Shown: positions 8,578-57,485 of the stretch, piece after piece
How positions within the stretch are numbered: the first letter of the stretch is position 1
Layout: every line of letters starts with the position of its first letter
Assembly (NCBI GenBank): GCA_039189765.1
Contig: JBCCYL010000007.1
Span: 64,001 to 128,000 of the forward strand
Direction of reading: 5' to 3'
DNA: 64,000 nucleotides
Source of the DNA: Cyanobacteria bacterium P01_F01_bin.150
Lineage (GTDB): Bacteria > Cyanobacteriota > Cyanobacteriia > CAKZMO01
Made by a program: the position numbers and the translations under genes
The notes under the pieces: generated by a model
Seen by the model: the letters and a program-made list of their open reading frames with translations, nothing else
Told to the model about the DNA's origin: nothing
The model's database searches: none

Positions 8578-9001
8578 AATGAAAATGAGAAGGTTGAACT
8601 ATTTAGCTACCAAATTTTTTGGTCAGCAACACATTCGACAGCGATAGACATGTAGGGCTAGTTTAGCGTATGGCCAATCAGTCTAAAATGATCTATCTGA
8701 ACAGTGTGTAGAATGCCCCTGAGTAGATGGTTCCAGTAGCCTAAAAGGAGAAAGTTATAGGGACCATACGGGTGATAATAGCATTGCTATGACTTAACCT
8801 AAATGCAGTCTTAACTGTTACGGGCTTGAAAAGCCTGCTCCTAGATTAGAGACATATGCTTTGACTACCAAAAAAATTAATATTTAAATCCCATCAGTTC
8901 CTAAAAAAAGGTTTGCTTTAGTGATGCTGGCCTCAGATGTGCGGTAAAGTCGTTGAACCGTAGCCGCCTTAAACTACTATCCTATTTACTCCATCGATCC
9001 C

Positions 9002-10927: not shown

Positions 10928-13900
10928 ATGCAGTTACACAACATTTTCCAGGGGTTCTGGACATTAATAAAATGGATTAACCATAGGATTCATATGTTTA
11001 TGAAAGCCCTTATGGTGAGCCTATTACGGTGTTTATTCCTTTTTAGTCAGCCATCCCGGATAGAAAGAGGATTTATTTTACCTACTACCGTTTTACTTAT
11101 TTTGGTGGTTACTTTGGCAGTCGGCTCAATGACATTACGAACTCTGAATCGAACGAGTCAGGTAGCGGGCGATCGCCAGCAGCGCATCATCTACAACGCT
11201 GCCACTCCAACAATGGATCGCGCCAAAGCCAAATTAGAATTCTTATTTGATACTCAGCGAAATCCCCTTTATCCAAACGGCATTCCGGATCAGGCTGTTT
11301 TGAATGACATGATGCTAAATGACAGCCTTGCCGATAACAACTATATAATTTCGTTTGAGGGCTGTGATGGAAACCAAAAGGATCCGTTCACATTTCCTGC
11401 CGATGAGTGTGACTACACTTCTGCGGAAGCAGAGACTCGGATTGATATTGATGGTGATGGGAACAATGACAATGCCTGGTCCTACCGTATTGATATGAAT
11501 GAGGACGGTACGTTAGATGCCAGCGTTGCATACTCGATTATCTTCAATAAACCATCCAATAGTGATGCCAATAACAAATTAGAGAATGCATCTGATATAG
11601 CTATCTCAAACAGAGCTCAAGCACTACAGGTCAGGCACGGTCCCCTCAGTATTCCAATTCAAGATAATGGCTGTGGCAGTGTGGGCGGTGATACAGCTGA
11701 AAGTGACGATGGCTGGAGCAAGCCTGTACAAGGAGGGGCAACTCTTTACAAGAACTTCCAAATTAATGTGTTTGTCAAGCCTGATGATCCGGCTACAACC
11801 GTTTCTACATTGGAATTCCATCAAGACCGGAAAATTGATGAGGGTAACAAGTGGGGGGCATGGTTCCGTAATGACTTAGAAATTTATCCAGGGGCAGAAT
11901 TTAACTGGAACGGAGCCATGCATACTGAAGGTAATCTCTTTATGGGAAATACTAACTTCGAAGGTTACCTGATTAGTTCTCCTGCTTCTTGTTATTATAG
12001 TCAGGCCGATTCTGAAGTTACCGTTGCCGATCGATCTGCACCTGTTCAAGCCAATAACTTTGAGGGGCAAATCATCAGTGCACAGTTGAAAGATAATGAT
12101 TGGGACCAGAACGACAACAGTTCAAAATTTCACCTCTTTAGGGCTGATGGCAACATCACAAATGCCGATATAAAGGCGTTAAACATCACCAATGACTCCG
12201 TGGATGAGGATGGGAGTTCTTCTGCACCAGCCGACTACCTATTGGACCCAGTAGTTCTAGCCACCCAAGATATTTCTAAGGCAAGGAACTTTCCAAGTGA
12301 TACGGCGACAGAAGATGGTAACCCTGCACCTTCTCGGGCTGAAGAATGGCCCAAGGATACAAACGACTTCTTTGACAGAAAACGTTTATATAATCAGACG
12401 GAGGATACTCCTTCTGTGGATGATTCTTTCCGCGCCGACAATCGTTATGGTCCGAAAGCTCGTATTGACGGTCAAGATATACCTGGCAAAATTGGTGAAA
12501 AAATTGATTCTAGTAAAACAAAATTGATTAACTTAGGTGATGATTTTGTAGATGATTTCACCAATGTAGGGCTGGATGGCTATTGGGAACGCCGGGCGCG
12601 GGCCGAAGGATCACGGTTTATTGTGGGCCAACGCTTAGAGCTGGGCAATACCTTTAGTTGGGGAGGTCTAGACAAGGATGGAGATTATCTTGACTTAGAC
12701 ATCGATGATCTAACAGCGCGCGAGCCACTTATGCCTTGGGATGGATGTGATGAGTATCAAGACTCTACCCGCTGTGAGGAAGGACGCCAGCGGCGCAGTT
12801 TACGGGATAATCTGGCAGCCGTACAAGCAACGGCGGTTTATCATGCTAATGCAGCAAATGGTGATAAGGATTTTCCTATAGCCTGTCTAGCATCTACGGT
12901 TCATCCGGGTACTCCCTACACGCTGCAAAATAGCTCTACTTTCTTAGACTGGACTAAAGGGCTAGAGGGCTATTGGGATAGTGCCGATTTTGGTGGAACC
13001 TCTCCACAACTGATTAGCGACTTTTTCCGAGGAGAAGGGACCAACGGTTGGGAATATGCTCCCCCCAGTAGTGGCAATGCCTCCACTTTTGGAACCGATT
13101 TGGCAGAGACACAACCCTTGGGTAAAGCTTTGCGAAATTGGGCCTACTTTGCTGGAGACCCTGAGGCTGGGGCACCCTCATTTACACCCACACAGGAGGC
13201 GGGGAAGGTTCACCCTTATCCTTTAATGTCCATGTGGGGAGATGCCTCGGTGTTGCGACGTATCTTTGCAGAGTTGGATAACACTAGCTATGCGAACTTG
13301 AGTCCGGCAGATAAAACCACCCTGCAAACAGCCGCCTGTAGTCTAGGCATGTTGGCCAATGAGCTATACATACTAGAAAAGTTTCAATATGCGAATGATA
13401 TTGAGGCCCCACCGGGAAAATATGGAGCTGGTACTCCAAAACTTCTAGATGTTTTAAACGCTCGCTTAATCGCATTGAGCCTAAATAAAGCAAACGCTAG
13501 TAAAGTTGACGATACCTACAATCAAGACGCATTGGATGCCCTGGGTATTACTACCGATCAGAATGGGGATACTGTTTTGGATGGAGACGATTTACCTGAC
13601 TACTGGGCAGAGCCGCCTCTAGATCAAAGTACCAATAAACCTTACGGTTACTACAATAAGACAACGACCCTATCGTCACGTTTTGATAACTTAAATAATG
13701 AAGGGGACGATCCTGAACGCTATATTGCTCGCTTACAACAGTGGCACGATGCTGATTTGCTAGCGTTTGATAACGATAGGATCACTGACGCCACTCTACG
13801 TCTACAAAAGTTTAACGTGGATGATGACTTGATTAATTTGGCCAAGATCATCATGTTACGAGAGCAAACCATACGCGATCGCTCTTGGGGATTTATGATT

Positions 13901-15988: not shown

Positions 15989-16015
15989 TGCTTACCCTCT
16001 ATAGTTTCGTCGGGT

Positions 16016-16094
16016 GTAGGGTGGGCAAAGGACGTTAGGACGTGCTCACCAAAGCCAATTTCTGATTGGCCCCCGTTCGTTTTGCCCATCCTAC
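16016..16094. repeat. GTAG-type REP/MITE-like inverted element
   Basis: GTAGGGTGGGCAAA (16016-16029) / TTTGCCCATCCTAC (16081-16094), 13/14 complementary; related copy at 19435-19493. Confidence 0.75.
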
Positions 16095-16099
16095 GTCAG

Positions 16100-16170
16100 C
16101 TAAAGGGGAGGGCCGGAACCCCCTCTAGCTCTCTCCCTTGCTAAGGGAGAGGACCGGAGTCCCCTTTTAG
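16100..16170. repeat. Short palindromic dispersed repeat
   Basis: Hairpin CTCTCCCTT-GCT-AAGGGAGAG (16131-16151) followed by GACCGGAGT; related element at ~26261-26297. Confidence 0.6.
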
Positions 16171-16247
16171 TTCATCTTATGCCCTTTGATAAAGATCTAA
16201 ATTTACCGCGTTATTCACTTTACTGTTGAGAGTCGTCGCTTAAGTTC

Positions 16248-17039
16248 ATGAAACCTACTATGAAGTCATCATCGTTGCATACACTGTTATCTTGTCTTGT
16301 CCAGCCGGGACGATTTCTTTATAGCGCTCGACAGAATAGGAGTTGTCGAGGGCAGAGGAACGGAGCCTCAGAGGACGGTCTTACATTACTAGAATGTGTG
16401 GTGGCGATCGCCGTTATTGCCTTAACAGGTGCAATGATTGGTCCCCCTCTGGTTCTGGCCGCAGCCACCCGAGTCCAGAATCGTCGTGCTGAGCAAGCGA
16501 TGCAACTCGCCCAAGGAGAGGTCGATCGCATTCGTGCCATGGTTATAACCGGTGAGGCATCGGTTGCCAAATTGCCTGCTCTGGTAACGGCAACCGATCT
16601 AGAAACCCACCCTGCTCCGGCCCGACTTATGAATGGAGAACTCAAATCGCCTGAATGTAATACCTATGATCCAACTACCGATGTGCCTGCGGCCGATGAA
16701 GTACTGGCAGTGGATGTGAATGGTGAAGAGACCCCAGGCAACTGTGAGGCTGACTTTTTGATTCAAACCTTCCGCCAAAACTTAGACAGAGATGGAGAGA
16801 CCCGAGATTTTCAACTAATGGTTCGGGTTTATTTTGCTAAAGCTGCGGACGATTTTACAAGTCTGCAGGAAGAACAGGCGAGCTTAGGGTTTACGTCTGG
16901 TAGTGGAGAGTACTGGCAAAAGCCCCTTGCTGTTATCACCACCCGCATTAATGAAAGCGACTCTAACGCAGCCCTGTGTGGATATCACGGCCTTAATGAT
17001 GAAACGACCTCTGATGGCTCAGCCGATACTGATTGTTAA
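16248..17039 (+). CDS. hpsB: Prepilin-type N-terminal methylation protein (HpsB-like pseudopilin)
   Basis: DG|LTLLECVVAIAVIALTGAMIGPPLVLAAATRVQNRR prepilin motif; directly downstream of hpsA. Confidence 0.75.
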   Translation: MKPTMKSSSLHTLLSCLVQPGRFLYSARQNRSCRGQRNGASEDGLTLLECVVAIAVIALTGAMIGPPLVLAAATRVQNRRAEQAMQLAQGEVDRIRAMVITGEASVAKLPALVTATDLETHPAPARLMNGELKSPECNTYDPTTDVPAADEVLAVDVNGEETPGNCEADFLIQTFRQNLDRDGETRDFQLMVRVYFAKAADDFTSLQEEQASLGFTSGSGEYWQKPLAVITTRINESDSNAALCGYHGLNDETTSDGSADTDC

Positions 17040-17096
17040 TACCTTCTACATGGCCCGTTCTAAAAAAGATACTACATTTAAGGATTTATAGAGACG

Positions 17097-18074
17097 ATGG
17101 AACTTCTACTAAAAAAACTTTGTACTCAGCCCCATAAAACAATAACTAAACAGTCAAGTAAAGGCTTTACTTTAATTGAACTGTTGGTCGTAGTCTTAAT
17201 CGCCGGGGGCATCATTTCTGGGTTGATGTTTATGGTAGTGGAGTTGTTAACCGCTGACCAAAAGGAAGCTTCCAAAAATCAGACTCAGCAGGAAATGCAG
17301 ATGGCAATGGACTACATCAGCGCTGAGTTACGAGAGGCGGTCTATGTTTACGATGCCAATTGTCTGGGCAGCACAGCAAATGGCAGCGCTGGCGATGCAG
17401 ATTATTGTCCAGGTCTGTATAATCATTTGCCTACAGGCTTGACAGATGGCGATACTACGCCAATCCTAGCCTTTTGGAAACAGGAGCAATTGCCTACAAC
17501 AGTTCGTGAGGCTTGTGGTGGTACCGGGACTTTGGTTGACGATACTCCCTGTATTGCTGGCCATGCCTATTCACTGGTGGTTTACTCAACGGACACAGCC
17601 AATAACACTACCTGGGATGGTAAATCTCGTATTACTCGCTATGCCTTAGATAAGTACAAAGTATCAGGGGCAACCTATTCAGAAACACCTGGGTATGTTG
17701 ATCCAGGTGCCTATGGTAATGAATTTAGAAGCTGGCCTTATTATCAGGGAATTGGGGATATCACCCAAGTGAATAAGCAAACTGGAACATTGGATGAAGG
17801 GACCGACGATGTGCTAGTCGATTTTGTCGATAGTGAGGCTTTAAATCCAGCTCCCACATGTCAGACCGGCTATAACTTGAGTACCAACGGGACCATTACT
17901 GGCTTTTATGGTTGCGTCAGTGATGGCGACGCAACCGATAACAATCGAGACATTATTCTGTCTCTGAGAGGTAATGCCTATGGGCGTCCAGCTATCAGTG
18001 GAGAGAAGTCATACTTGCCTATTATCGAGACCCATGTGCTGAGTCGTCCTGTTTTGAATAAATCTCCTAATTAG
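17097..18074 (+). CDS. hpsC: Prepilin-type protein (HpsC-like pseudopilin)
   Basis: KG|FTLIELLVVVLIAGGII; AMDYISAELREAVYVY, PILAFWK and YSLVVY motifs; position in the locus. Confidence 0.75.
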   Translation: MELLLKKLCTQPHKTITKQSSKGFTLIELLVVVLIAGGIISGLMFMVVELLTADQKEASKNQTQQEMQMAMDYISAELREAVYVYDANCLGSTANGSAGDADYCPGLYNHLPTGLTDGDTTPILAFWKQEQLPTTVREACGGTGTLVDDTPCIAGHAYSLVVYSTDTANNTTWDGKSRITRYALDKYKVSGATYSETPGYVDPGAYGNEFRSWPYYQGIGDITQVNKQTGTLDEGTDDVLVDFVDSEALNPAPTCQTGYNLSTNGTITGFYGCVSDGDATDNNRDIILSLRGNAYGRPAISGEKSYLPIIETHVLSRPVLNKSPN

Positions 18075-18109
18075 TCTTTAGATTCTGCACCATTATTCTA
18101 GGCACTGCT

Positions 18110-18721
18110 ATGACTTCATTTTTGCTCAAGTTTTTAATGGCGACGAGGCTTCAACCTGATCGTACGTTGAGTGACTCTTCTCCTATCAACCCATATTTCA
18201 AGACCAAGCAATTAAATGGCTCTTGCTCATCATCTAGTGGATTTTCTTTACTGGAAATGATTGTGATTGTCGTAATTGTAGGCGTTCTGGCCGCGATCGC
18301 TGCTCCCAGTTGGTTGGGTATGGCCAATCGACAGCGTGTAAATACAACCCGTAATGAAGTCCTCCAGGCTATTCGCACCACTCAAAGCACTGCTAAGCAG
18401 AGACGTCGGCCTCAAGAGTTGGGATTTACACAGGATGGGACAAATGATTTGCCAACCATCACTTTGGGGGGAGTTTCCACTGAGTTGGGGAGTGGAAACT
18501 TGAAAGCAGATATGGTCAATATGAACGTGACGGATGGTGGTGGAAATGCATTGTCTATCCTTGAGTTTAGAGAAGACGGTACGCTGGAAACAGAGGATCC
18601 CGCAGTCACGCTACCTGTCAAGATTGTCTTCACCGCGACAAATGGGAGAACCAAGCGTTGTTTATTGGTTGAAACGTTATTGGGAAGCGTCAGATCTGAA
18701 TCGGACGACGATTGTTTATAA
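18110..18721 (+). CDS. hpsD: Prepilin-type FimT/GspH-like protein (HpsD-like)
   Basis: SG|FSLLEMIVIVVIVGVLAAIAAPSWLG; C-terminal KRCLLVETLLG...C. Confidence 0.7.
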   Translation: MTSFLLKFLMATRLQPDRTLSDSSPINPYFKTKQLNGSCSSSSGFSLLEMIVIVVIVGVLAAIAAPSWLGMANRQRVNTTRNEVLQAIRTTQSTAKQRRRPQELGFTQDGTNDLPTITLGGVSTELGSGNLKADMVNMNVTDGGGNALSILEFREDGTLETEDPAVTLPVKIVFTATNGRTKRCLLVETLLGSVRSESDDDCL

Positions 18722-31977: not shown

Positions 31978-34146
31978 CTAGTCGTTTAGAATCTCACGCA
32001 TTGTTTGGGCCAGCTGCATTGCATCAGCATTTTCGGGTTCCAGACTCAAGGCTCGATCAACAGAGTCCAGAGCCGCGCTGAACTGTTGCAGTCCCCATAG
32101 AGCAGCTCCACGATTGCTCCAAGCCTCTGAAAGACTTGGGTCAAGCGCGATCGCCTCATCAAATGCATCCACCGCCTTTTGAAGCTTATCCATCCGCAAC
32201 AAAGCCGTTCCTTTATTATTCCAGGCTTCTGCAAAGGCAGGATCTTTTTTAATCGCCTTGTCATACAGCTTGATCGCATCCTTGTACTCTTGCTGTTGTT
32301 CCAGAGCATATCCCTTACTCCATAAGGCCCGTGAGTGATCTTTGTCTAGATCGATAGCTTGATCGCAGGCTGCAATTGCTTCATCAAAGCGCTGGAGAGC
32401 ATTAAGGCTGTAGCATTGCCCCACATAGGCTTCAGTCGCATCTGGGTAGGCTGCGATCGCCCGTTCATAGAGGACTAGGGCTTCTGAATATTGCCCTGCA
32501 TCCTGTAGCTGTACTGCCTGTGTTAACTGGGCTGTAAGAGGAGAAATAGCATTATCAATGTGGGATGGTGGTGTTATGACAGTGGAACCCTCTATCGGAT
32601 TAGAACTACTTGATGGTTGAGTCTGGTTAAGGTAGGCAGATGGTGATGGTCCGTCAATAGAAGGAAATGAACTGGAGGAAGGCTGGGGTTCAGCCTGATG
32701 CGTAGGTGTTGAACTCTGATCATCCGTTGCTGCTTCCGAGCCTGGTATATGACCGGCTGTCTCCGATGCAGAGGAGTTCGTTTGGGCAATAGTAGGAGAC
32801 AGCGGTGAGGGTTCTAAACCAGATTTTCCTAAAATTACTCCTATGATTAACGCGCCAAGAACGGCGATTGCTGCTGGGAACACTCTCCTATATGGTCCTA
32901 GAGGACTTCTTGTGTGAATAAAAGGTTGAGGATTTGTGACTAGCTCTGTCGTCCCAGTGGTTTTCGTCATCCTATGACTTATGCCATGACCGTTATGGCT
33001 ATGTTCTTTGGAAATATCCATGCGTTGACCTACAACCCGCTGGGTTCGGGCCAATTCCATACTGGGGATAGAACTGGATATGCCCTCATGGGGCATCGAA
33101 GAATCAACAGATGAATCTTGGGTAGGAAAAGACGGAGCAACCACCAGGGTTGATTCGGTCGATTGTTCCTTGGCACTAGCTTGTAAGGAAACAGAAGTAT
33201 GGCCAGCTTGCTGACTATCAGCGTGATCCTTAGCTTGGTCATTTTGAACAGGGTTGGAAAGGCTAGCCGGAATCGCTTGCACTAGCTCCTCAGGCAGTTT
33301 TTTTAGGGCATTAAACGCATCGGCAGCTATGGCATATCGAGAGCGAAAATCATACCGAACCATTTTGTCTAAAAAGGCGACCAATTCTGGACGGACTTGT
33401 TCTGCATAATCATGCCAATTCAACTCCCCTGTAGTGGGATCGGGTGTCAGCATGCGAGGGTGGCGTCTAGTCAGCAGTTGGATTCCCATAACGCCTACTG
33501 CATATAGATCGCTGCTAAATTGAGGCATGCCAACAATTTGTTCGTTAGGCATGTATCCCTGGGTACCGATGGAAATCGTATGACTGATGCTTGTCTCTGA
33601 ATTGATCAGTTGGGTACTCGCCTGCTTAACCGCTCCAAAATCAATCAATACAATTCGCTGATCGCGGCGACGACGCATTAGATTAGAGGGTTTTAGATCT
33701 CGATGGATGACCCGCTGTTGATGAACAACAGATAGGGTCCCTAAAACATCCCCTAGAAATGTCACAACCTGGCTATCTGTCCAGCGTTTGGTCGTTGTAA
33801 ATTCTTCGGATAGGGAATGCCCTTCAATCAATTCTTGGGCAAGGTAAAATTCATTCTTGTCTTCGAAGTGAGCCAACAGTTGGGGAATTTGAGGGTGGGT
33901 ACCCAAGGCATAGAGAACCTTAGCTTCTGTATCAAACAATCGCCGTGCTACTTGCAGCGCTTGGGCACTTTCGACGTGGGGCTTGAGCTGCTTAATGACA
34001 CAGGTTGGCTGCCCAGGCAGATGTAGGTCCTGGGCCAAAAAGGTATGGCCAAAGCCCCCTGCTCCTAGTTCTTGAATAATTTTGTAGTGTCCCCCCAAGG
34101 GGGGCTTGGAACGCAACTGTAGCGATCGCAAAAAATTTAATGCCAT
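31978..34146 (-). CDS. Membrane Ser/Thr protein kinase with C-terminal TPR repeats
   Basis: LGAGGFG, VIKQL, HRDLKPSN, DFG and GTQGYMPNE intact; single TM; about five TPRs. Confidence 0.95.
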   Translation of the reverse strand: MALNFLRSLQLRSKPPLGGHYKIIQELGAGGFGHTFLAQDLHLPGQPTCVIKQLKPHVESAQALQVARRLFDTEAKVLYALGTHPQIPQLLAHFEDKNEFYLAQELIEGHSLSEEFTTTKRWTDSQVVTFLGDVLGTLSVVHQQRVIHRDLKPSNLMRRRRDQRIVLIDFGAVKQASTQLINSETSISHTISIGTQGYMPNEQIVGMPQFSSDLYAVGVMGIQLLTRRHPRMLTPDPTTGELNWHDYAEQVRPELVAFLDKMVRYDFRSRYAIAADAFNALKKLPEELVQAIPASLSNPVQNDQAKDHADSQQAGHTSVSLQASAKEQSTESTLVVAPSFPTQDSSVDSSMPHEGISSSIPSMELARTQRVVGQRMDISKEHSHNGHGISHRMTKTTGTTELVTNPQPFIHTRSPLGPYRRVFPAAIAVLGALIIGVILGKSGLEPSPLSPTIAQTNSSASETAGHIPGSEAATDDQSSTPTHQAEPQPSSSSFPSIDGPSPSAYLNQTQPSSSSNPIEGSTVITPPSHIDNAISPLTAQLTQAVQLQDAGQYSEALVLYERAIAAYPDATEAYVGQCYSLNALQRFDEAIAACDQAIDLDKDHSRALWSKGYALEQQQEYKDAIKLYDKAIKKDPAFAEAWNNKGTALLRMDKLQKAVDAFDEAIALDPSLSEAWSNRGAALWGLQQFSAALDSVDRALSLEPENADAMQLAQTMREILND

Positions 34147-39037: not shown

Positions 39038-40369
39038 GTGGTCACTAGTCACCATCAGGAGAAAGTTGTGCAGGAAACCCTTGTGCAGGATCGACTTGTG
39101 AGAAAAAAGCTCACGCAGGGAGGAAATGTGCAAGAAGATAAGAGTCAGGATTTGGCTTTACAACGAGATTCTTTACAACAAAAAGATGCTCTGCAAGAAG
39201 AATCTCCAGCAAGCAGTGTACAGAGCATTGAAGCTCTATCTAAGTTTTTAATTAATGAATTTCGCCATTCTACCAGTGCCTCAGCCAAACACTGTCGAGA
39301 GGTAGCAGGGAGGATTACGGAGGAAGTCTCTCGAATTTGTACTGAAAGTCAACGTATTCAAGCCTCAGGAGAGGTGGATACCTGGCTTTTGAACCTTGCA
39401 AGGCATCGCCTCAAGCAGTGTTTGAAGTACTATAACCTAGGTTCTCGAAGAGGGCGGGTTGAGCTGCACAGTACTTTGAGTGCGGTGGTGTATCGATACA
39501 TTACCCCGCCTCAAGTTCAATCTAGCTATCAGGCACGGCTCAATTTAATTGAAGACTTCCTACAGAATTTTTATGTAGAAGCCCTGAATGCATTCCGACG
39601 GGAAAATAAGATGGAGGCGACCTACTGTCCTCGTTCACTGTTAGAGCTGTCAGAATATATGGCATTCACTGAACGGTATGGAAAACGTCGTATTCCATTA
39701 CCCCGTCGTCGCAGCCAACAGTTGATTATCCTACGTGCTCAAACGTTTTCTAAGCAACAGCCTCCTGAAACAATGGTAGATATGGAACAGGCGGCAGAGG
39801 GCGGCAGTAATGAAACGGATCAAGCTTGGAGTACAGCTCCACTGCAGCAGGTTCGAGAGCAGATGGTATCGTTAGGTCCTGATCCCGCTGAAGATTCTCT
39901 ACGAGATGTTGTATCTGATCAGCTCCTTGCCTACTTGGAAGAGCGACAACAGGAAGATTGTGCGGACTATTTTGTCTTGCGATTGCAGGATTTACCGGCC
40001 CATGAAATTGAGACGATCCTAGGACTTACCCCTCGCCAGCGAGATTACTTGCAACAACGCTTTAAATATCACCTGATTCGATTTGCCCTATCCCATCATT
40101 GGGAACTGGTGCATCAATGGCTGGAGGCGGATTTGGAGCGGAATTTTGGCCTTACCCCTTATCAATGGGGTGTTTTCTGGGATGACCTATCCGCCACTCA
40201 GCAAGAGATGTTGGAATTGAAGCAAAAAGCATGGTCTGACAAAGCGATCGCCCAGCAAATCGGCTGTACCACTACCCAAATGAATAAACAATGGTCAAAA
40301 TTATTGGAAAAAGCCTGGGAAATCCGTAACAATTTAATATCCGGAGCGAAGACAGAAGGCAATGAATAG
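39038..40369 (+). CDS. hetZ: HetZ-related protein
   Basis: EVSRIC...RIQASGE, YYNLGSRRGRVELHSTLSAVVYRYI, IEDFLQNFYVE, HTH-like LGLTPRQRDYLQQRFKY and HHWELVHQWL; start uncertain (GTG). Confidence 0.85.
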   Translation: MVTSHHQEKVVQETLVQDRLVRKKLTQGGNVQEDKSQDLALQRDSLQQKDALQEESPASSVQSIEALSKFLINEFRHSTSASAKHCREVAGRITEEVSRICTESQRIQASGEVDTWLLNLARHRLKQCLKYYNLGSRRGRVELHSTLSAVVYRYITPPQVQSSYQARLNLIEDFLQNFYVEALNAFRRENKMEATYCPRSLLELSEYMAFTERYGKRRIPLPRRRSQQLIILRAQTFSKQQPPETMVDMEQAAEGGSNETDQAWSTAPLQQVREQMVSLGPDPAEDSLRDVVSDQLLAYLEERQQEDCADYFVLRLQDLPAHEIETILGLTPRQRDYLQQRFKYHLIRFALSHHWELVHQWLEADLERNFGLTPYQWGVFWDDLSATQQEMLELKQKAWSDKAIAQQIGCTTTQMNKQWSKLLEKAWEIRNNLISGAKTEGNE

Positions 40370-48225: not shown

Positions 48226-48540
48226 ATGGACAATATCTTTGAGAGCTTGCCAACTGACTTAAGCCAAGAGGTGTTTGAGCAGTTGGTCAATAGCGAGTCA
48301 GTAAAAATCGAGCGTATTGTCTCCAAGGGGCATACGTCTCCCGAACGTGGATGGTATGAGCAGCCTCAGCATGAGTGGGTAATGGTTCTCAAGGGTGGTG
48401 CGTTGCTGGAATTTGATAATCAGGAACCTGTGCGCCTTAAACCGGGAGACTATTTAACGATTCCCGCCTATCAGAAGCACCGAGTCGCTTGGACCGATCG
48501 CTTTTGCGAGACGGTTTGGCTAGCTATTCATTACCCCTAG
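48226..48540 (+). CDS. Small cupin-domain protein
   Basis: KIERIVSKGH...WYEQPQHEWVMVLKG...LKPGDYLTIPAYQKHRVAWT. Confidence 0.88.
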   Translation: MDNIFESLPTDLSQEVFEQLVNSESVKIERIVSKGHTSPERGWYEQPQHEWVMVLKGGALLEFDNQEPVRLKPGDYLTIPAYQKHRVAWTDRFCETVWLAIHYP

Positions 48541-48699
48541 CGAATGTTGCCTTTCTGGTGTGGCTTTTCGGGTTGGGAGAGGGGCGATCGCCCCTAACGT
48601 GTCCCCAAATTTAGGATAGAGGGCATGCCACCATATACATGAACCATCCTCTAACTCAAATGATTATGAATCTGAAGGTCACTCGGAGGCTGTGATCCC

Positions 48700-48861
48700 T
48701 ATGCTTTCGTTGACCCTAGCAACACCCTTGCCGGACAAGGGTTTCAGCTATTTCAAAAGGTGTATTAATGAGAATGATTGTTAAGAGTGAGGGTATGATC
48801 TTGACCCTAGCAAAATCGGCCTCTAGATTGATTGGTATATCTGGCTTCTAGAAGCCGAGGG
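48700..48861 (+). promoter_or_regulatory. CRISPR leader 1
   Basis: 13-bp direct repeat TTGACCCTAGCAA at 48710 and 48801, CCCTTGCCGGACAAGGG palindrome and terminal GGCTTCTAGAAGC; collinear with leader 2. Confidence 0.75.
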
Positions 48862-48896
48862 GTTCCCTCTCGCAGGGAAACTAATTGAATGGAAAC
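48862..48896 (+). CRISPR. Solitary CRISPR repeat (35 nt)
   Basis: GTTCCCTCTCGCAGGGAAACTAATTGAATGGAAAC; TTCCCT/AGGGAA stem, canonical GAAAC 3' end; four differences from the repeats at 49329 and 49401. Confidence 0.8.
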
Positions 48897-49169
48897 CTTA
48901 AGCAAGGCAGAAGGATGAAGGCAGAAGGGGGATGTGGGGCGATCGCGCTGAGTTGAAGGGGGGCGATCGCCTCTCCTCATTGCCAAAATCTAAAATAGAG
49001 CAAATGCGATTTTGATGAAGATAAATATTAAAACATAGGTTCTATTTTTTGATATTTCGCTAGATTGGGTGATGAGACAGGTTTAGACGCCGAATTTATG
49101 ACTTTATCTCTTTTATGTTTTTATTTTCTCAATTTCTTCTAGGGTTTTGGCGATCGCCGAAACCCCCAT

Positions 49170-49328
49170 TCTTTCGTTAAACCATGGAAGTGACTTGCCC
49201 CGTAAAGGGTTCAGCCGTTTTCTATAGGCGATTATGGCAAATATTTATCAATTATTTGGTCTTTATGGCATACCCCCCGAAAATGGGGGTGTACAATCCA
49301 TACATAGTGAGGCTTCTAGAAGCTGGCC
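49170..49328 (+). promoter_or_regulatory. CRISPR leader 2
   Basis: TTTCGTT...CTTGCC...AAGGGTTCAGC...AAAAT.GG...GGCTTCTAGAAGC, in the same order as leader 1. Confidence 0.75.
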
Positions 49329-49435
49329 CTTCCCTCTCGCAGGGAAATCACTTGAATGGAAACATGCCACAAGCTTAGACCAAAGGTGCTGATGAGACGT
49401 CTTCCCTCTCGCAGGGAAATCACTTGAATGGAAAC
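49329..49435 (+). CRISPR. Minimal orphan CRISPR array: two identical 35-nt repeats and one 37-nt spacer
   Basis: CTTCCCTCTCGCAGGGAAATCACTTGAATGGAAAC at 49329-49363 and 49401-49435; spacer ATGCCACAAGCTTAGACCAAAGGTGCTGATGAGACGT; style resembles cyanobacterial class 1 (type III-like) repeats. Confidence 0.88.
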
Positions 49436-49555
49436 CTTAATCAAGGCAGAAGGATGAAGGATGAAAAAAGACGAGATTAAGGCCAGATCGTTCTCAGTAA
49501 TGCGATCGCTTCTGCCTTCTTTCATCGCGCGATCGCCCCCTTCTGCCTTCTGCCT

Positions 49556-50581
49556 TCATCCTTTTAAGCACCACTCAGTGAGTTCGAGCCAAGCAGGAGA
49601 TTTACATAACGCTTCAGTATCTAAAACCGTGCCCCAGCGTTTGGAAAATTGGACAAAGCTTTCAATCCAGAGAATCAGCGTATCGATGGGAGGATGATGG
49701 CGATACTGCCATGTTTGTTTAAGATAGTGAATCATTTCGTCAGGATGTCCAGTGTAGTGGAGATACCAAGCAATCCAAATCCAGGTGGCAAAGCGGGTCT
49801 TTTGTTCCCCGCGTCGAATTTCAGGGGGCAGGTCAGAACGAGTAAAAAACTGATTGATGACAGCGGCAAGCGATCGCGCCTGGGGCAACCCCTTATGCAT
49901 CGCACTTTCATTATGTTGACGATAGTAAACCGTTATTTCTTCCAGCCAAGCCGTTTGACATCCCATCGCCGCTAATCGCAATATTAAATCCGTGTCTTCC
50001 GCAGGCGGAAACTGGGGGTTAAAGCCATCTGCTTTTAGCAACCAATCTTTCCGAAACATCATGGCGCTGGGCAAAACAGGCTTCCACTGCAACCACTGGG
50101 CCAAATCCAAATAGGGACAATCGAGCCATGGTTTAACGTCCATCAACGCCTGACCTGCCGCATCCACCCGTTGCCAACCGCTGTGCACCATGCCCACATC
50201 AGGATTAGCGTCAAAGATCGCTCGCTGGCGCTCTAGCTTGGTTGGGACCAGCCAATCATCCGCATCTAAAAAGGCAATATACTCTCCTCTCGCTAACTGG
50301 ATGCCATGATTTCGAGCCACCGCTACCCCCTGGTTCGACTGACGGACATAGCGAATGCGCTGTGAGCGATCTGGCAAATTGCGTTGCGATCGCCCTGTTT
50401 CATATTGTTTCTCCATCTGCTCCATGACGCGAACCGTATTATCAGTTGATCCATCGTCAATCACAATTAGTTCATAGTCTTCAATGGTTTGGGCAAATAC
50501 ACTATCCATTGCTTGGAAAAGATAGCGATCGCAGTTGTAGGTTGGAATGATAACGCTAATAGCGGGGGTAACGAACGACAT
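49556..50581 (-). CDS. Glycosyltransferase family 2
   Basis: ISVIIPTYN, IVIDDGSTD, NQGVAVARNHG, FLDADD and AED motifs. Confidence 0.93.
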   Translation of the reverse strand: MSFVTPAISVIIPTYNCDRYLFQAMDSVFAQTIEDYELIVIDDGSTDNTVRVMEQMEKQYETGRSQRNLPDRSQRIRYVRQSNQGVAVARNHGIQLARGEYIAFLDADDWLVPTKLERQRAIFDANPDVGMVHSGWQRVDAAGQALMDVKPWLDCPYLDLAQWLQWKPVLPSAMMFRKDWLLKADGFNPQFPPAEDTDLILRLAAMGCQTAWLEEITVYYRQHNESAMHKGLPQARSLAAVINQFFTRSDLPPEIRRGEQKTRFATWIWIAWYLHYTGHPDEMIHYLKQTWQYRHHPPIDTLILWIESFVQFSKRWGTVLDTEALCKSPAWLELTEWCLKG

Positions 50582-52151: not shown

Positions 52152-55100
52152 ATGGATCTGGTTCTTTGTCATCTTACGGCCGATTTCGATACGTTGGGAG
52201 CTGCTGTCGGAGTCTCTCTTCTCAATCCAGGCACCCGAATTGTCCTGGCTGGAGGGTGCCATCCAACTGTACGAGACTTTTTAGCTCTCCACCGGGGTGA
52301 ATATGCATTAATTGAACGGCGATCGGTTTCCGAGGATCAAATTCGCTCCATTACCGTTGTCGATACTCAGCAGCGCGATCGCCTCGGTTCCATTGCTCTC
52401 TGGTTGGATCTTCCCGATTGTACGATCACCGTCTACGATCACCATTCTGATCTTGATCATCATCGCGGTCAAGACGACAAGAATAAGCGGGCAATGGAGT
52501 CCGGAGCCATTGTTGCCCAACACTACCATGTTGCATCGGTCGGGGCTGCTACTACTTTGATTGTGGAAGCGTTACAGCATCAACAGGTCATCATTAACTC
52601 CATTGAAGCAACCGTTATGGCCTTGGGCATTCATGCCGATACAGGTTCCCTTACCTTTGATCACACCACCGTGCGTGATGCAGCGGCATTAACTTGGTTA
52701 ATGGCCCAGGGCGCTAATCCTAGAGTCATTGCTGAATATGTGGAGCCAGGATTATCTCCCGCTCTGCAAGATTTATTGCCTACAGTCTTAACCCATATCC
52801 AAGTAAAGTCTTTAGGGGGGATCTCTCTGGCTTGGGTCAAGGTGAGTGTCAATGCCCATACTCCCGGTTTATCTAGTCTAACCTCGCGGATTATGGATCT
52901 CACCGAGAGCGATGTGCTGATTTTTGCCAGCCATTACCCTTCTGGAGATGGAACAAAGATGAGCGTGATTGGGCGATCGCGCAGCGGTAGTTTTGGGACT
53001 GCTCATTTAGACGCCATTGATTTGGGGCAAATTTTTCGTGAGCTAGGTGGGGGAGGTCATGCCAAAGCGGCTGCTGTTACGCTCCACTTTCCCAGCCCCT
53101 CAACGTCACTGGCATCATCAAGTCCAAATTTAGTATCAGAGCTAACTCTATCATCCGAACTACCAGCATCCGAACTACCAGCATCCGAACTAACCGCAGA
53201 TACAGCCCTGGAACAGATTTTAACCCAGGTAGAATCCCAACTGCCCTCACCTGCCAAGGCGCGAACCTTGATGTCCTCTCCCGTCCGGACCATCCGTCCA
53301 GATATATCCATCGCGGAAGCCCATCGCATTTTGCTGCGTTATGGCCACTCTGGCCTATCGGTCGTAGATAGTGATGGACGATTGGTTGGCATTATTTCTC
53401 GTCGCGATCTAGACATTGCACTCCACCACAATTTCAGTCATGCCCCTGTTAAAGGGTTTATGTCTACAAATCTCAAGACCATTGGTCCCGATATGTCGTT
53501 ACCAGAGATTGAATCGCTGATGGTGACTTACGATATTGGCCGTCTTCCCGTGCTGGATGGTGATGAAATGGTCGGAATCGTGACGAGGACCGATGTTTTA
53601 CGTCAGCTACACCAAACCCAGCAAGTCCTGCTTGCTCAACAAACGGATGAGAATGGCCCACAATCAGCAGGGTTCTCGCAAATGGGCAAAAAAACAGATG
53701 AAAAATCAAGCAATCTTTTGGCCCCATTGGGTTCGATTTCCTCTGAACTTTCATCGCTTCAACGGTTTAATCACAATCACCCCCGCCGTGACTGTCCGCT
53801 CCCCCAAACCATGACCCAACGATTGCGCGATCGCCTTATTCCTGAACTATGGGACCTACTGCAATCCGTAGCTCTGGAGGCAGAAACTCGAGGATGGCAT
53901 TTATACGTAGTGGGTGGGGCTGTCCGTGATCTATTGCTAGCCAAAGACGGTGATCCGTTTTTAATTCCTGATGTGGACCTCGTGGTAGACGGTTGCCATC
54001 GGCAAGATGAAACGGCGGCTGGGGTTGAATTAGCTAAAGCCCTTCAGAAACACTACCCTAATGCTCGACTCCAGGTTCATGGTCGGTTTCAAACCGCTGC
54101 CCTACTTTGGCACCATGATCCGGTGCTTAAATCCCTGTGGCTCGATATTGCCACGGCCCGGACCGAATTTTATCCTTACCCCGCAGCCAACCCCGAAGTG
54201 GAGGCCAGCTCAATTCGTCAAGATCTATATCGTCGTGATTTTACAATTAATGCCCTCGCTATTCGTCTTACTTCACCCAGGGCAGGGGAATTGCTGGATT
54301 TCTTTGGCGGTACATTGGATCTAAAATCCCACCATATTCGAGTTCTACATCCCAACAGCTTTATTGAAGACCCCACCCGCATTTTTCGCGCTGTTCGGTT
54401 TTCTGTGCGTCTGGATTTCAAGATTGAACCTCAAACTCGTCGCTACATTAGACATGCGATCGCCAGCGGCATTTATCATCAGGTCCAGACCGAAATGGAT
54501 GTGGCCCCAGCGCTGCAAACACGACTGCGAAAAGAGTTGCAATATATCCTAGAGGCACCCTACTGGCGTACCGCTATTCAACTCCTGGCTGACCTCAATG
54601 CGCTGCAATGTATTCACGCAGATCTTGCCCTATCTCCAAAAATCTGGTGGCAGCTGCGCTTGGTCGATCGCTGGCTCAAACGCTTTGACCCAGACAGCCA
54701 ATTAGCCCACTGGCTAGTTCTGCTTGAAGTCGTTATTTCCCACCTCGACGACCCTTACCCCAAAACCATCGCAGAGAATCTCCAGCTTCCCACCGACAGC
54801 ATTCGCCGTCTTAGTCAGTTCAAAGCCATTTATAAAGATCTGCACCAGACTCTTATGTCATCAACTGCTGACCCAACCCCCAATCCCATAACGCCTCCCT
54901 CCAACCCCCCCGCTCCCCCGCCCCTCCGCTCCCCCGCTCCCCCGCTTCCCCCCAGCGCCATCACTACCTATCTCAAACCCTACGACCGCTCAACCCTCAT
55001 CCTCGTTGGGGTCAGGAGCGATCGCCCTTTGCGTCGGCTTATTTGGAAATATTTGGCCCATTGGTCCCATGTAAAAGCACCGCTAAACGGTAATGACTTA

Positions 55101-55235
55101 AAAGAATTAGGATATAAACCAGGGCGTCAGTTCAAATGGATCTTGAATCAGCTTTTAGCTGCAACCCTGGATGAAAACATTGAAACAGCGGCTGATGCAA
55201 AAATATTCCTGACCACTCTGAGGTTGCCTGGTTAA
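52152..55235 (+). CDS. tRNA nucleotidyltransferase (CCA/A-adding class) with DHH-like and CBS domains
   Basis: CHLTADFD, YDHH and GGGGHAKAA (DHH/DHHA1); two CBS domains; YVVGGAVRDLLL, DVDLVV, DLYRRDFTINALA and SFIEDPTRIFRA. Confidence 0.92.
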   Translation: MDLVLCHLTADFDTLGAAVGVSLLNPGTRIVLAGGCHPTVRDFLALHRGEYALIERRSVSEDQIRSITVVDTQQRDRLGSIALWLDLPDCTITVYDHHSDLDHHRGQDDKNKRAMESGAIVAQHYHVASVGAATTLIVEALQHQQVIINSIEATVMALGIHADTGSLTFDHTTVRDAAALTWLMAQGANPRVIAEYVEPGLSPALQDLLPTVLTHIQVKSLGGISLAWVKVSVNAHTPGLSSLTSRIMDLTESDVLIFASHYPSGDGTKMSVIGRSRSGSFGTAHLDAIDLGQIFRELGGGGHAKAAAVTLHFPSPSTSLASSSPNLVSELTLSSELPASELPASELTADTALEQILTQVESQLPSPAKARTLMSSPVRTIRPDISIAEAHRILLRYGHSGLSVVDSDGRLVGIISRRDLDIALHHNFSHAPVKGFMSTNLKTIGPDMSLPEIESLMVTYDIGRLPVLDGDEMVGIVTRTDVLRQLHQTQQVLLAQQTDENGPQSAGFSQMGKKTDEKSSNLLAPLGSISSELSSLQRFNHNHPRRDCPLPQTMTQRLRDRLIPELWDLLQSVALEAETRGWHLYVVGGAVRDLLLAKDGDPFLIPDVDLVVDGCHRQDETAAGVELAKALQKHYPNARLQVHGRFQTAALLWHHDPVLKSLWLDIATARTEFYPYPAANPEVEASSIRQDLYRRDFTINALAIRLTSPRAGELLDFFGGTLDLKSHHIRVLHPNSFIEDPTRIFRAVRFSVRLDFKIEPQTRRYIRHAIASGIYHQVQTEMDVAPALQTRLRKELQYILEAPYWRTAIQLLADLNALQCIHADLALSPKIWWQLRLVDRWLKRFDPDSQLAHWLVLLEVVISHLDDPYPKTIAENLQLPTDSIRRLSQFKAIYKDLHQTLMSSTADPTPNPITPPSNPPAPPPLRSPAPPLPPSAITTYLKPYDRSTLILVGVRSDRPLRRLIWKYLAHWSHVKAPLNGNDLKELGYKPGRQFKWILNQLLAATLDENIETAADAKIFLTTLRLPG

Positions 55236-55436: not shown

Positions 55437-57485
55437 ATGACACTAGCAGTTGGATCACTCCTGCAAGACGACAGATATCAGATCCAAACGGTCTTGAATT
55501 CGACGGATGTTGAAATCGCGTATCAGGCGGTTCACACCTATTTGAATCGACCCGTTATTCTGAAACAGTTGCTTCATGATGATATAGAGTGGGTGGTTTC
55601 TGATCCTCCCACTCCTCAGGATGTCATGATTCAGCTATTGCGACTGTCACAGTGTCAACATCCTTGTTTGGGAGAGGTTCTGGATTGTTTTGAAGAAGAT
55701 GGTTGGGTTTATTTAGTTTTACCTACAGCCAGTGAGTTAACGATGGCCCAATGGCTGCAAGCTAATGGCCCTGTTAAGCCGTTAGACATGCTGGCGCATC
55801 TGCGATCGCTTATCGATATTTTCGATAAATTTCATCAGCATGATCTGGTGTACGGAAATCTCAGTCCCCAGACGCTTCACTATCGGACTGCAACCAATGA
55901 GATGGTGCTTACTGATTTTAGCTGGCGAATGTTTATTACAGATTTGCTTAGCGATCGCCACCGACTCAATTATTCAAAAATCCTTGATTTACAGCGATTA
56001 GCCTATATTGCCTACTGTTTTTTAACGGGTGATTATGGTTTTGTAGATGATGTTTGGACAGCAACGTTTCATACTCCATTAGAGGGTGAGTTGGAGGAGC
56101 AGCAAGACAACATTCGGCACAATATAGGCACTGTGTCCAAATTTCATAGCGTTTTGCCCAAATTTCATACCATTAGTGCCATTGCCAACCGAGAGGTGGA
56201 AGCAGTAATCTCTACAGCCCTTTATCCTCAAACGGCTCAATTGCTTACCCCCACAGATTGGTTTATTGCTTTAGAGCATGCTATCTGTTCAGGACAAATG
56301 CGTGAAGCTGTTAGTCCCTCTACATCAGAACCATGTAGTTCAATGGTATTTCCCTCATTGTTGCCCCCAAACTTTAACGTCCCCCACCCATCATCAGGAG
56401 AATCAGGAGAACTAGGAGCAAAGGTCTTGACTCAAGCAATCATAGAAGAAGCCCCCCTGCAAGCAGATTCCTTAGCGAAGGTAGAGGCTTCGGAGTTACC
56501 TTTTTCCGAAGTTCATGATGATGGTGTGGCCTCTCAAGTTTATATGGATGAAGATATAGAGACCAAAGATGGGACTGGTGCTGATAGTAACGCAGACAAT
56601 ATCTATGACACAGCCCTTGATAGTCAACGAAAACAGGAAACTCGTTGGCTAGGCGTTAAACGGGGATTGCCTCTACTTTTGGGAGCGACATCTGTTGTAG
56701 CAGCCATATCTGGAGGGATGGTAGGCTATGTGTTTCGCACCCAGGATATTGAGCAACTGGAAAAGTCTCCCCTATTTGGGAATGAAATTTTTGGGCGTGA
56801 ACAAGAATTTCCTCCCTCAGATCAATGGCCGGGATTGAGTCCTCACGCTGACGATAGTCCGACTGTTCTGTTTGAACGTTCGACTACGAGTCCGCAAGCG
56901 ACACAGATTCCTGATAGTAAAGCGGCTGATACCTTTTTCAGTGATAATGGTGCAGCTAATGAAAGCCCTGCCGCATCTAGAAGACCTGTAGAGGCTGTTC
57001 CTTTGGATGGTAATGGGTTAGCGTCTTCTGATGTCATCAGAGATAGGGCGTTAGAAAATATTGTGCCTTTTCCCAATGCAGAAGACTTAGAGCAAAATCC
57101 TCAGATTGAATCAACTGATGGTTTTCCTCGTCAAGAATCTGAGCTGCCTCGAAAAAGGCCAAAGCCTTCAGAGCAAACTAACATCCAACCGCTTGTTTCA
57201 CCTTTAGAAAGCCGTATTAATTCCTCTCCTTTCCAATCTGAATCACCACGGGTGAATGAGTTGCCACCTCTTTCGGAACAATTAACGCCAAGGAGACCAT
57301 CTTCTGAGCAAACTCCAAGACAGTCTGGCAACGCGCCATTGTCCAATACGGAAATTTTAGATCGACTCTCTAATCAGCGACCCAAGCCATTAATTACCCC
57401 TGTATCGCCTTCTCGACAAGAGCAGGTCCCCGAACATGATGTGACAGATGTTTCGGATGCTGCGGGGCTATCTAGTGACGTTTAA
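55437..57485 (+). CDS. Membrane Ser/Thr kinase-like protein, probably a pseudokinase
   Basis: Kinase fold (LLQDDRYQI...VILKQ...HPCLGEVLDCFEEDG), but no Gly loop, YGNLSPQT in place of HRDxKPxN, and DFS in place of DFG; single TM. Confidence 0.75.
   Translation: MTLAVGSLLQDDRYQIQTVLNSTDVEIAYQAVHTYLNRPVILKQLLHDDIEWVVSDPPTPQDVMIQLLRLSQCQHPCLGEVLDCFEEDGWVYLVLPTASELTMAQWLQANGPVKPLDMLAHLRSLIDIFDKFHQHDLVYGNLSPQTLHYRTATNEMVLTDFSWRMFITDLLSDRHRLNYSKILDLQRLAYIAYCFLTGDYGFVDDVWTATFHTPLEGELEEQQDNIRHNIGTVSKFHSVLPKFHTISAIANREVEAVISTALYPQTAQLLTPTDWFIALEHAICSGQMREAVSPSTSEPCSSMVFPSLLPPNFNVPHPSSGESGELGAKVLTQAIIEEAPLQADSLAKVEASELPFSEVHDDGVASQVYMDEDIETKDGTGADSNADNIYDTALDSQRKQETRWLGVKRGLPLLLGATSVVAAISGGMVGYVFRTQDIEQLEKSPLFGNEIFGREQEFPPSDQWPGLSPHADDSPTVLFERSTTSPQATQIPDSKAADTFFSDNGAANESPAASRRPVEAVPLDGNGLASSDVIRDRALENIVPFPNAEDLEQNPQIESTDGFPRQESELPRKRPKPSEQTNIQPLVSPLESRINSSPFQSESPRVNELPPLSEQLTPRRPSSEQTPRQSGNAPLSNTEILDRLSNQRPKPLITPVSPSRQEQVPEHDVTDVSDAAGLSSDV

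Follow-up and report, generated by a model that had tools for sequence, protein, structure and literature searches.

Two minimal leader-repeat units, related by sequence to type III-B CRISPR arrays, in a cyanobacterial window without cas genes

Why would a cyanobacterium hold two full CRISPR leaders that between them serve three repeats and one spacer, with no cas gene nearby? The question is raised by a 64-kb stretch of DNA from Cyanobacteria bacterium P01_F01_bin.150 (the window; 64,000 nt analyzed in full), in which an earlier note, made from the letters of the sequence, had described a solitary repeat plus a one-spacer mini-array. Pattern searching with up to 3 mismatches bore this description out: a 35-nt repeat occurs three times in the window and no more, always on the plus strand (matched at 48863-48896, 49330-49363, and 49402-49435), where 100 shuffles gave an expectation of none. 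A leader of about 190 nt lies upstream of each unit. The locus, with its flanks, is laid out as follows.

48226-48540, plus strand: cupin-domain gene, left flank, outside the system (Pfam Cupin_2, E 9.3e-10; NCBIfam nif11_cupin below cut-off)
48667-48861, plus strand: leader A (nine-leader profile aligns 48689-48847, envelope 48667-48859, E 3e-8)
48843-48856, no strand: perfect palindrome of 14 nt, 5 nt before repeat A, recurring before unit B
48862-48896, plus strand: solitary repeat A, 35 nt (HMM of cas-linked repeats, E 1.3e-7; hairpin at nt 2-18, 6/6 pairs)
48897-48921, plus strand: trailer A, 25 nt, purine-rich, 24/25 identical to 49436-49460
49123-49328, plus strand: leader B (nine-leader profile aligns 49144-49325, envelope 49123-49327, E 5.2e-9)
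49329-49363, plus strand: repeat B1, 35 nt, identical to B2
49364-49400, plus strand: spacer, 37 nt
49401-49435, plus strand: repeat B2, 35 nt, identical to B1
49436-49460, plus strand: trailer B, 24/25 identical to trailer A, pairing with 49539-49559
49536-49563, minus strand: third trailer-like copy, in inverted orientation, at the GT2 gene's 3' end (18-mer with 2 mismatches)
49556-50581, minus strand: family 2 glycosyltransferase (GT2) gene, right flank, outside the system, convergent with the arrays (Pfam Glycos_transf_2, E 3.9e-34)

Unit A consists of a leader and one repeat with no spacer and is not formally an array, while unit B is a leader followed by repeat-spacer-repeat (49329-49435), showing the spacing and unique spacer of an array at the bare minimum. 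Repeats B1 and B2 agree at 35/35 positions and each agrees with repeat A at 31/35; comparison of the 35-mers confirmed the two repeat types that had been described and placed their four differences at positions 1, 20, 21, and 23, which are variable among cas-linked variants too. No additional copy with at least 60% ungapped identity to either repeat was found on either strand of 48401-49700. Gapped alignment likewise detected no decayed repeat behind either unit, with scores of 12 and 9 where the null means were 11.3 and 11.4 (1253/2943 and 2774/2927 random segments scored at least as high). The idea that the trailer is an old shared spacer standing before a decayed terminal repeat was rejected, the alignment scores lying at or below the random level. 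No Rfam family reached its gathering score over the 64-kb window, an Rfam search of 48400-49700 at E values up to 10 returned only chance matches to snoRNA and lncRNA models, and the small open reading frames (ORFs) across the locus (59, 64, 69, and 78 aa) had no PADLOC match.

Judged by sequence, the repeats and leaders of the window are homologous to the cas-linked arrays of the csx18-cas1-cas2/type III-B cmr family. A hidden Markov model (HMM) built from eight cas-linked repeat variants of other organisms recovered the three copies with E values of 1.3e-7, 2.5e-6, and 2.5e-6 (next E, 3.3). When plasmids were searched with unit B by blastn, it matched arrays of 63 repeats in Nostoc 7524, 32 in Anabaena cylindrica 7122, and 51 in Leptolyngbya BL0902, all directly behind csx18-cas1-cas2 in the same orientation and beside type III-B cmr; cas6 is annotated nowhere in the stretches fetched from these three. 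Other members of the family are CRISPR3 on pSYSA of Synechocystis 6803 (39 repeats), Nostoc C052 (34 repeats), Cyanobacterium aponinum (44 repeats), and Leptolyngbya boryana pLBX, with arrays of 42, 19, and 5 repeats. The type III-B modules of this comparison set are plasmid-borne.

Two marks of the family, a 35- to 36-nt repeat with a 5' hairpin at nt 2-18 and a constant 3' tag, and a homologous leader directly upstream on the same strand, are present in the window. Across 10 repeat variants the nt 2-18 stem is kept by compensatory changes (pairs 3-17 and 4-16 as CG/TA/TG, pair 7-13 as AT/TA/CG), and the window repeats form 6/6 of its pairs. The last 12-14 nt are nearly constant across the same 10 variants, with a tag ending in TTGAATGGAAAC, and the 14-nt 3' tag of repeat A is identical to that of 6/8 cas-linked variants. 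Synechocystis 6803 CRISPR3 is reported to be of subtype III-Bv, with a 5' hairpin in its repeat and crRNAs whose handles of 13/14 nt result from cutting by host RNase E instead of Cas6, and type III crRNA 3' ends are reported to be made by trimming (PMC12464536). By this precedent, the 8-nt ATGGAAAC handle proposed in the earlier note is probably wrong.

Leader homology was assessed with a profile of nine cas-linked leaders that contains no window sequence and no repeat. With nhmmer, this profile matched only leaders A and B in the window (next-best E, 1.7), and a three-leader profile also found leader A (E 8.7e-4); leader profiles lacking window sequence match only upstream of the repeats and on the correct strand. 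Leader A is collinear with eight cas-linked leaders in alignment, and 14 of the 17 columns invariant in those eight are kept in leader A and 13 of 17 in leader B. Conserved-column retention is 76-78% for the window leaders versus 61-94% for the eight cas-linked leaders in leave-one-out comparison. As had been described, leaders A and B are collinear but diverged, being about 52-53% identical (100/189). At the level of conserved columns, both are as intact as cas-linked leaders. This integrity reflects constraint since A and B diverged and does not speak to present function. Leader A also contains a promoter-like TTGACC-17-TAGATT (48801-48829), which is a consensus match only (1 found versus 1.8 expected from shuffles), and a terminator-like HIP1 hairpin (49142-49165) stands at the start of leader B.

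The hairpin, the leader profiles, and the lack of decay support the view that the locus contains genuine leader-repeat units, and that these are two distinct units rather than the remains of a single decayed array. That an assembler collapsed one or two long arrays to one and two repeats is very unlikely: repeats are hard to assemble from short reads, but this locus has two different leaders and two repeat variants within unique flanking sequence, a collapse would not twice yield a clean leader-repeat-trailer junction with the same trailer, and the region contains no contig break or run of N.

If the units are genuine, where are their cas genes? The earlier statement that cupin and GT2 genes flank the locus and that no cas gene occurs in 64 kb was upheld by four methods. 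Pfam identified no cas gene among the 42 ORFs of at least 100 aa in the 64-kb window, NCBIfam none among 16 of these 42 (mainly those unnamed by Pfam and the neighbors of the locus), and PADLOC none among 46 ORFs, where only two kinase-like proteins matched, to kinase models. For remnants, 36 proteins of four type III-B loci were compared with all six frames by tblastn, with a best E of 0.16 and no match near the locus. The cognate csx18-cas1-cas2 and cmr genes are absent from the 64-kb window, which puts the nearest possible cas gene at least 14.5 kb away on one side and 48 kb on the other.

The neighboring genes, encoding pentapeptide, DUF456, cupin, GT2, and CBS-nucleotidyltransferase proteins (Pfam, NCBIfam), are chromosomal in character. 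Tn7-like elements are reported to target cyanobacterial arrays (10.1101/2024.10.13.618069); no transposon-like gene was found near this locus by Pfam. The 1015-nt intergenic stretch contains six HIP1 octamers, which suggests long residence. The repeat pattern had 0 matches in the species genome collection. When the CBS-nucleotidyltransferase protein (52152-55235) was used to look for synteny, 60 loci came back, of which the best were only 55-62% identical; homologues of the cupin, GT2, 433-aa, and DUF456 proteins stood beside the match in none of the 38 of these 60 loci that were compared, and the family repeat occurred in 0/60, where the best leader-profile match had an E of 0.065.

The best reading of the locus is dependence on cas genes elsewhere. 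We favor, with a probability of roughly 55%, two independent minimal arrays of the III-B family that are now, or were until recently, served in trans. By analogy with the characterized relative, each leader would drive a short pre-crRNA on the plus strand, and host RNase E would accept the repeat as a substrate by virtue of its 5' hairpin at nt 2-18 and its linker, which is A/U-rich and single-stranded. As in Synechocystis CRISPR3, the cut would fall 13-14 nt before the 3' end of the repeat, so that no Cas6 would be needed, and RNase J with 3' trimming would complete a crRNA able to work only with a Cmr complex encoded elsewhere. Orphan arrays are described as typical of multicellular cyanobacteria, with their processing enzymes encoded elsewhere (10.1101/2020.04.14.041012).

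Spacer uptake at the leader-repeat junction would similarly require Csx18-Cas1-Cas2 in trans. The identity of its two repeats gives unit B the look of a unit A that has acquired one spacer, and by analogy it may be that state. In E. coli, a leader plus one repeat is reported to suffice for uptake, and the new repeat to be copied from the leader-proximal one (PMC3384332). This lends weight to one half of the suggestion, in the earlier note, of maintained regulatory or seed units: seeds they may be, while the regulatory half found no support.

The single spacer is ordinary in size, its 37 nt falling within the 35-38 nt of the first and last spacers in three cas-linked arrays; Synechocystis CRISPR3 spacers are listed as 35-47 nt (PMC3575380, Table 1). 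No second copy was found in the window at up to 3 mismatches, and, with the tolerance raised to 9 mismatches, no match in the window or in 70 comparison loci, which include 9 type III-B loci. A comparison of the spacer with plasmids and phages, called for earlier, gave no credible match: plasmid hits (PLSDB, E up to 10) were repeats or short chance matches, and phages gave one chance match (E 4). For the whole 1015-nt intergenic stretch, plasmid matches were confined to array repeats of Nostoc C052, and phages returned nothing.

Less likely than service in trans is a long-dead relic, in which the units are the remains of a III-B locus whose cas genes were lost or moved, or arrays collapsed by repeat recombination, now unused and persisting by inertia. 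We consider this possible but doubtful. A window without cas genes or remnants is what a relic would leave, but orphan arrays of a filamentous cyanobacterium are reported to be processed in trans (10.1101/2020.04.14.041012). There are almost no spacers, the one present has no known target, the repeat is in none of the species genomes scanned, and a single repeat can reportedly remain after repeat-repeat recombination (PMC3384332). Yet the repeats have kept every position conserved in the family as well as the hairpin, and the leaders, though mutually about 52% identical, are as conserved as cas-linked ones. Shmakov et al. considered mini-arrays close to type III loci to be probably degraded and without function (10.1101/2023.03.03.530964); here, however, no degenerate repeat was found, whereas the cas-linked L. 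boryana arrays 2 and 3 each end in one. A poor match at the aligned -10 position (compared with PMC3575380, Table 1) also fits a relic.

That position is occupied by the palindrome. The palindrome and the 25-nt trailer are common to the two units only. The second copy of the palindrome (49311-49324, 1 mismatch) lies in leader B, and in the 64-kb window and 70 comparison loci the motif is confined to 48843 and 49311, being absent from cas-linked leaders. In Synechocystis CRISPR3 the same position holds the -10 box, with a transcription start site (TSS) listed 1 nt before the first repeat (PMC3575380, Table 1). Since the palindrome, with its poor -10 match, stands where Synechocystis has this box, transcription of the window units is not assured. 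Between A and B, the palindrome, the repeat, and the trailer have diverged far less than the remaining leader sequence.

The trailer was not found behind cas-linked arrays, nor, at up to 5 mismatches, in 9 type III-B loci of other organisms, and within the window only the inverted copy is complementary to it. The possibility that a third repeat, also inverted, stands next to that copy was considered and rejected, the alignment consisting of a purine-rich motif only, with no recognizable repeat. A strong HIP1-based hairpin follows trailer A (48897-48990 folds at -38.4 kcal/mol, z -3.8), and the trailer B region (49436-49572) folds at -41.9 kcal/mol, z -2.6.

One way to accommodate these elements is to suppose that selection keeps both units as Cas6-independent guide genes, a proposal that, taken as a whole, we think unlikely. 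The lone repeat of unit A and unit B would then give the same RNA, a 13/14-nt handle followed by the trailer as a fixed guide; a lone repeat could still yield a guide because type III 3' ends are trimmed and no downstream repeat is needed. Together with a Cmr complex from another locus, the guide would act on a transcript of the host or of a plasmid, while the intact leaders would keep both units available on the chromosome for new spacers to dock, and the shared palindrome at the promoter position would be a control site.

An improbable alternative, rated below the fixed-guide proposal, is a regulatory or anti-CRISPR RNA, of the kind in which crRNA-like RNAs tune cas or toxin genes (CreA, scaRNA) or soak up Cas proteins (Racr). 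The format of the locus, one solitary repeat and one mini-array of two repeats and a spacer, is that of such elements; palindrome, repeat, and trailer stand out from the rest of the leaders in conservation, and with type III 3' ends trimmed (reported in PMC12464536) a lone repeat plus fixed sequence could give a guide. However, regulatory mini-arrays are described as lying in or beside cas loci, typically with a degraded distal repeat and without the acquisition part of the leader (10.1101/2023.03.03.530964), whereas here no cas locus is nearby, the two B repeats are identical, and both leaders are full length. Racrs are described as solitary repeats in viral genomes (PMC10651486), and this locus does not lie in phage, plasmid, or prophage surroundings. 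At up to 9 mismatches for the spacer and up to 5 for the trailer, neither matches any of the 9 type III-B loci. The comparison with Racr, CreA/CreR, and scaRNA drawn in the earlier note therefore finds no support in a locus with full leaders, intact repeats, a chromosomal housekeeping setting, and no phage match.

Among described systems, several share parts of this arrangement with the two arrays we take to be served in trans. Synechocystis CRISPR3 resembles the window in its 35- to 36-nt repeat, nt 2-18 hairpin, A/U-rich single-stranded linker, near-identical 3' tag, homologous leader, and spacer lengths in the same range (PMC3575380, Table 1). It differs in having 39 repeats directly behind csx18-cas1-cas2 and beside cmr, where the window has 1 and 2 repeats and no cas, and in having a -10 box that gives a mapped TSS where the window has the palindrome. 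Arrays 2 and 3 of L. boryana pLBX are likewise tandem leader-array units on one strand, each with its own repeat variant, and are separated by 487 nt containing the second leader, compared with 432 nt in the window; the array 3 leader is the nearest relative of the window leaders (52-56% identity). Unlike the window units, the two pLBX arrays neighbor csx18-cas1-cas2 and cmr genes and contain 19 and 5 exact copies of the repeat, and each ends in a further degenerate repeat with no shared trailer.

Orphan arrays of the Anabaena 7120 type are also cas-free and scattered over the chromosome of a filamentous cyanobacterium, and are reported as Cas6-dependent I-D/III-D arrays (10.1101/2020.04.14.041012), whereas the family to which the window units belong is Cas6-less and cut by RNase E; the window arrays also differ from them in being of the minimum possible size. 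The residual cas-less arrays of E. coli ("anti-CRISPR" CRISPR3, Touchon and Rocha) are described as very short, down to single repeats, with spacers matching cas genes of the missing subtype (PMC2886076). The one window spacer, in contrast, has no match in 9 type III-B loci or in plasmid records. A limited literature search yielded no paper on paired leader-single-repeat units of the csx18-cas1-cas2-linked family.

Orphan and fragmented arrays are already known from filamentous cyanobacteria, and the locus is an extreme but ordinary case of them. Array finders usually demand more repeats than units this small contain, so such units may be undercounted. Should the two units be live, they would show the natural ground state of a CRISPR array, a leader with one repeat and then the same after one uptake, in a repeat family matured by a housekeeping nuclease and not by Cas6. 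An array of such an RNase E-cut family would need nothing of its own nearby, and the chromosome could store immune memory for a plasmid-borne type III-B module.

The 35-nt repeat occurs in exactly three copies, all on the + strand of one 1,015-nt intergenic stretch, and pattern and profile searches found no other copy in the 64-kb window, where none is expected by chance. The earlier note had described a lone repeat followed by a repeat-spacer-repeat, two repeat types differing at 4 of 35 positions, and a location between cupin and GT2 genes; copy comparison and gene annotation agree with each of these. No additional repeat, intact or decayed, was found in or around the locus, which is laid out as follows.

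48226-48540, + strand: cupin gene, left flank
48541-49555: intergenic stretch between the cupin and GT2 genes
48862-48896, + strand: solitary repeat A, 35 nt, single copy (unit A)
49329-49363 and 49401-49435, + strand: repeats B1 and B2, 35 nt each, identical, with a 37-nt spacer between (unit B)
49556-50581, - strand: GT2 glycosyltransferase gene, right flank, convergent
ahead of the first repeat, by 5 nt in unit A and 4 nt in unit B: 14-nt palindrome
directly after the last repeat of each unit: 25-nt purine-rich trailer, 24 of 25 positions identical between units

Rfam contains no family for this repeat. A blastn search of plasmid records with unit B identified long arrays in three cyanobacterial plasmids (63, 32, and 51 repeats). 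Each array follows csx18-cas1-cas2 directly, runs the same way as the window's + strand, and adjoins type III-B cmr genes; no cas6 is annotated in the stretches examined around them. Csx18 matched 21 plasmid records by tblastn, and four of the six examined carried the same array family (Synechocystis 6803 pSYSA CRISPR3, Nostoc C052, Leptolyngbya boryana pLBX, and Cyanobacterium aponinum), while Gloeothece 7822 and Picosynechococcus 7002 had different repeats near csx18. Common to 10 repeat variants are a stem (nt 2 to 18) kept by compensatory changes, a variable linker, and an almost constant 3' tag. All six stem pairs are present in the window repeats, the 14-nt tag of repeat A equals the consensus, and the four A/B differences fall at positions also variable in cas-linked variants. 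Judged by repeat and leader homology, both units demonstrably belong to the type III-B array family that includes Synechocystis CRISPR3. The repeat sequence and spacer lengths of CRISPR3 are those in Table 1 of PMC3575380. As described in PMC12464536, CRISPR3 is a characterized subtype III-Bv system without Cas6, in which RNase E recognizes the 5' hairpin and cleaves within A/U-rich sequence, 13 or 14 nt short of the repeat 3' end, and crRNAs of 48 and 42 nt are finished by RNase J and 3' trimming.

The roughly 190 nt upstream of each unit align collinearly with leaders of cas-linked arrays. A profile of nine such leaders, built without the repeat or any window sequence, matched only 49144-49325 (E = 5.2e-9) and 48689-48847 (E = 3e-8) in the whole window, with the next match at E = 1.7; an earlier three-leader profile also placed these two sites on top. 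The two leaders, previously described as collinear but diverged, are indeed so, at 52 to 53% identity. Because this is about the distance of each from the leaders of other genera, leaders A and B are old paralogues and not products of recent duplication. Of 17 columns invariant in eight cas-linked leaders, the window leaders keep 14 and 13, and leave-one-out retention of conserved columns was 76 to 78%, compared to 61 to 94% for cas-linked leaders. No sign of decay is seen in repeats or leaders. This integrity speaks against a relic of a lost module, though only as evidence of constraint over the long period in which A and B have diverged, and a relic is quite possible, if the less likely reading. 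Collapse of an array during assembly is unlikely, given unique leaders and clean junctions.

Scans of window open reading frames with Pfam, NCBIfam, and PADLOC revealed no Cas protein or remnant, and six-frame tblastn with 36 proteins from four type III-B loci gave a best E value of 0.16, far from the locus. The absence of cas genes from the 64 kb, reported earlier, holds, so the nearest possible cas gene is over 14.5 kb away on the downstream side or over 48 kb away on the upstream side. Two Ser/Thr kinase-like proteins (31978-34146 and 55437-57485) match the PADLOC kinase models PD-T4-6 and MkoA, probably reflecting generic kinase similarity and no defence system. An adjacent gene pair at 2-4067, the first extending past the window edge, encodes TPS domains of two-partner secretion exoproteins. 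The repeat pattern had no match in the species-genome collection. The best relatives there of a CBS-domain nucleotidyltransferase (52152-55235) were 55 to 62% identical, and none of 38 cyanobacterial loci compared around these relatives shared neighbors of the locus, so the lineage is poorly represented in that collection.

Gene products of the window include a phycobilisome protein, HetZ, and HpsA/B/C, and its HIP1 octamers number 64 versus 0.6 expected. Its source is a filamentous cyanobacterium, marked by HetZ, HpsA, and weaker HpsB- and HpsC-like genes (10928-18721 and 39038-40369). The HpsB- and HpsC-like genes score under the NCBIfam cut-off; with HpsA they point to a hormogonium polysaccharide cluster. 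Six HIP1 octamers (48584, 48939, 48963, 49150, 49502, and 49529) lie in the intergenic stretch, all between leader, repeat, and trailer blocks, which suggests long residence in this genome.

The type III-B locus of L. boryana pLBX (5446-12987 of the retrieved sequence) has three arrays with three repeat variants in 42, 19, and 5 copies. Behind cas2 come array 2 (19 repeats), a 487-nt gap containing a second leader, and array 3 (5 repeats), whose repeat variant differs from that of array 2, as in the window's twin units. These tandem arrays each have their own leader and a degenerate terminal repeat, and the leader in the gap is the closest relative of both window leaders. For this family, then, it is a natural layout to have leader-array units in tandem whose repeat variants differ; unlike pLBX, the window has no cas genes and nearly no spacers.

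The palindrome and trailer are shared by units A and B and absent from cas-linked arrays. Gene conversion could explain this sharing, as could a common 3'-end element or a conserved 'terminal guide'. A third, inverted trailer-like copy just beyond the GT2 stop can pair with trailer B; the predicted long hairpin (49436-49572; -41.9 kcal/mol, z = -2.6) may be a shared terminator of the convergent array and GT2 transcripts. A purine-rich heptamer run on an unrelated cyanobacterial contig (L014, near 6197, - strand) resembles the trailer with 5 mismatches in 25, a hint that the trailer sequence may belong to a simple-repeat type.

The analysis shows that repeat and leader belong to this family, that both are intact, and that no cas genes lie nearby. 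By analogy with the characterized relative and CRISPR systems generally, each leader would most likely drive a short transcript, RNase E would cleave each repeat 13 to 14 nt ahead of its end, and unit B would yield an RNA made of a handle and the 37-nt spacer. A Cmr complex encoded elsewhere would be needed for loading and interference, and Csx18-Cas1-Cas2 in trans for spacer uptake. The promoter is uncertain: the mapped start of CRISPR3 is 1 nt upstream of the first repeat (PMC3575380), and the matching position in the window units holds the palindrome and a poor -10 match, with a promoter-like site, a consensus match only, 30 to 40 nt further upstream. Unit A would be an array without a spacer, and unit B such an array once it had taken up one; this fits rules described for E. 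coli, where a leader and single repeat are enough for uptake and the first repeat is the template of the new one (PMC3384332).

The earlier note, which favored maintained regulatory or seed units, raised a role as regulatory or anti-CRISPR RNA. Its proposed check of the spacer against phages and plasmids produced no credible match, nor did the window or comparison loci. This empty target search, the chromosomal setting, the complete leaders, and the identical unit B repeats leave that role weak and quite unlikely, and type III mini-arrays were deemed probably degraded in one survey (10.1101/2023.03.03.530964). Orphan arrays, with processing enzymes encoded elsewhere, are described as typical of multicellular cyanobacteria (10.1101/2020.04.14.041012). 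Beyond confirming that the units are present, the analysis assigns the locus to a family: it is an extreme case of the known orphan arrays of filamentous cyanobacteria, within the RNase E-processed type III-B family.
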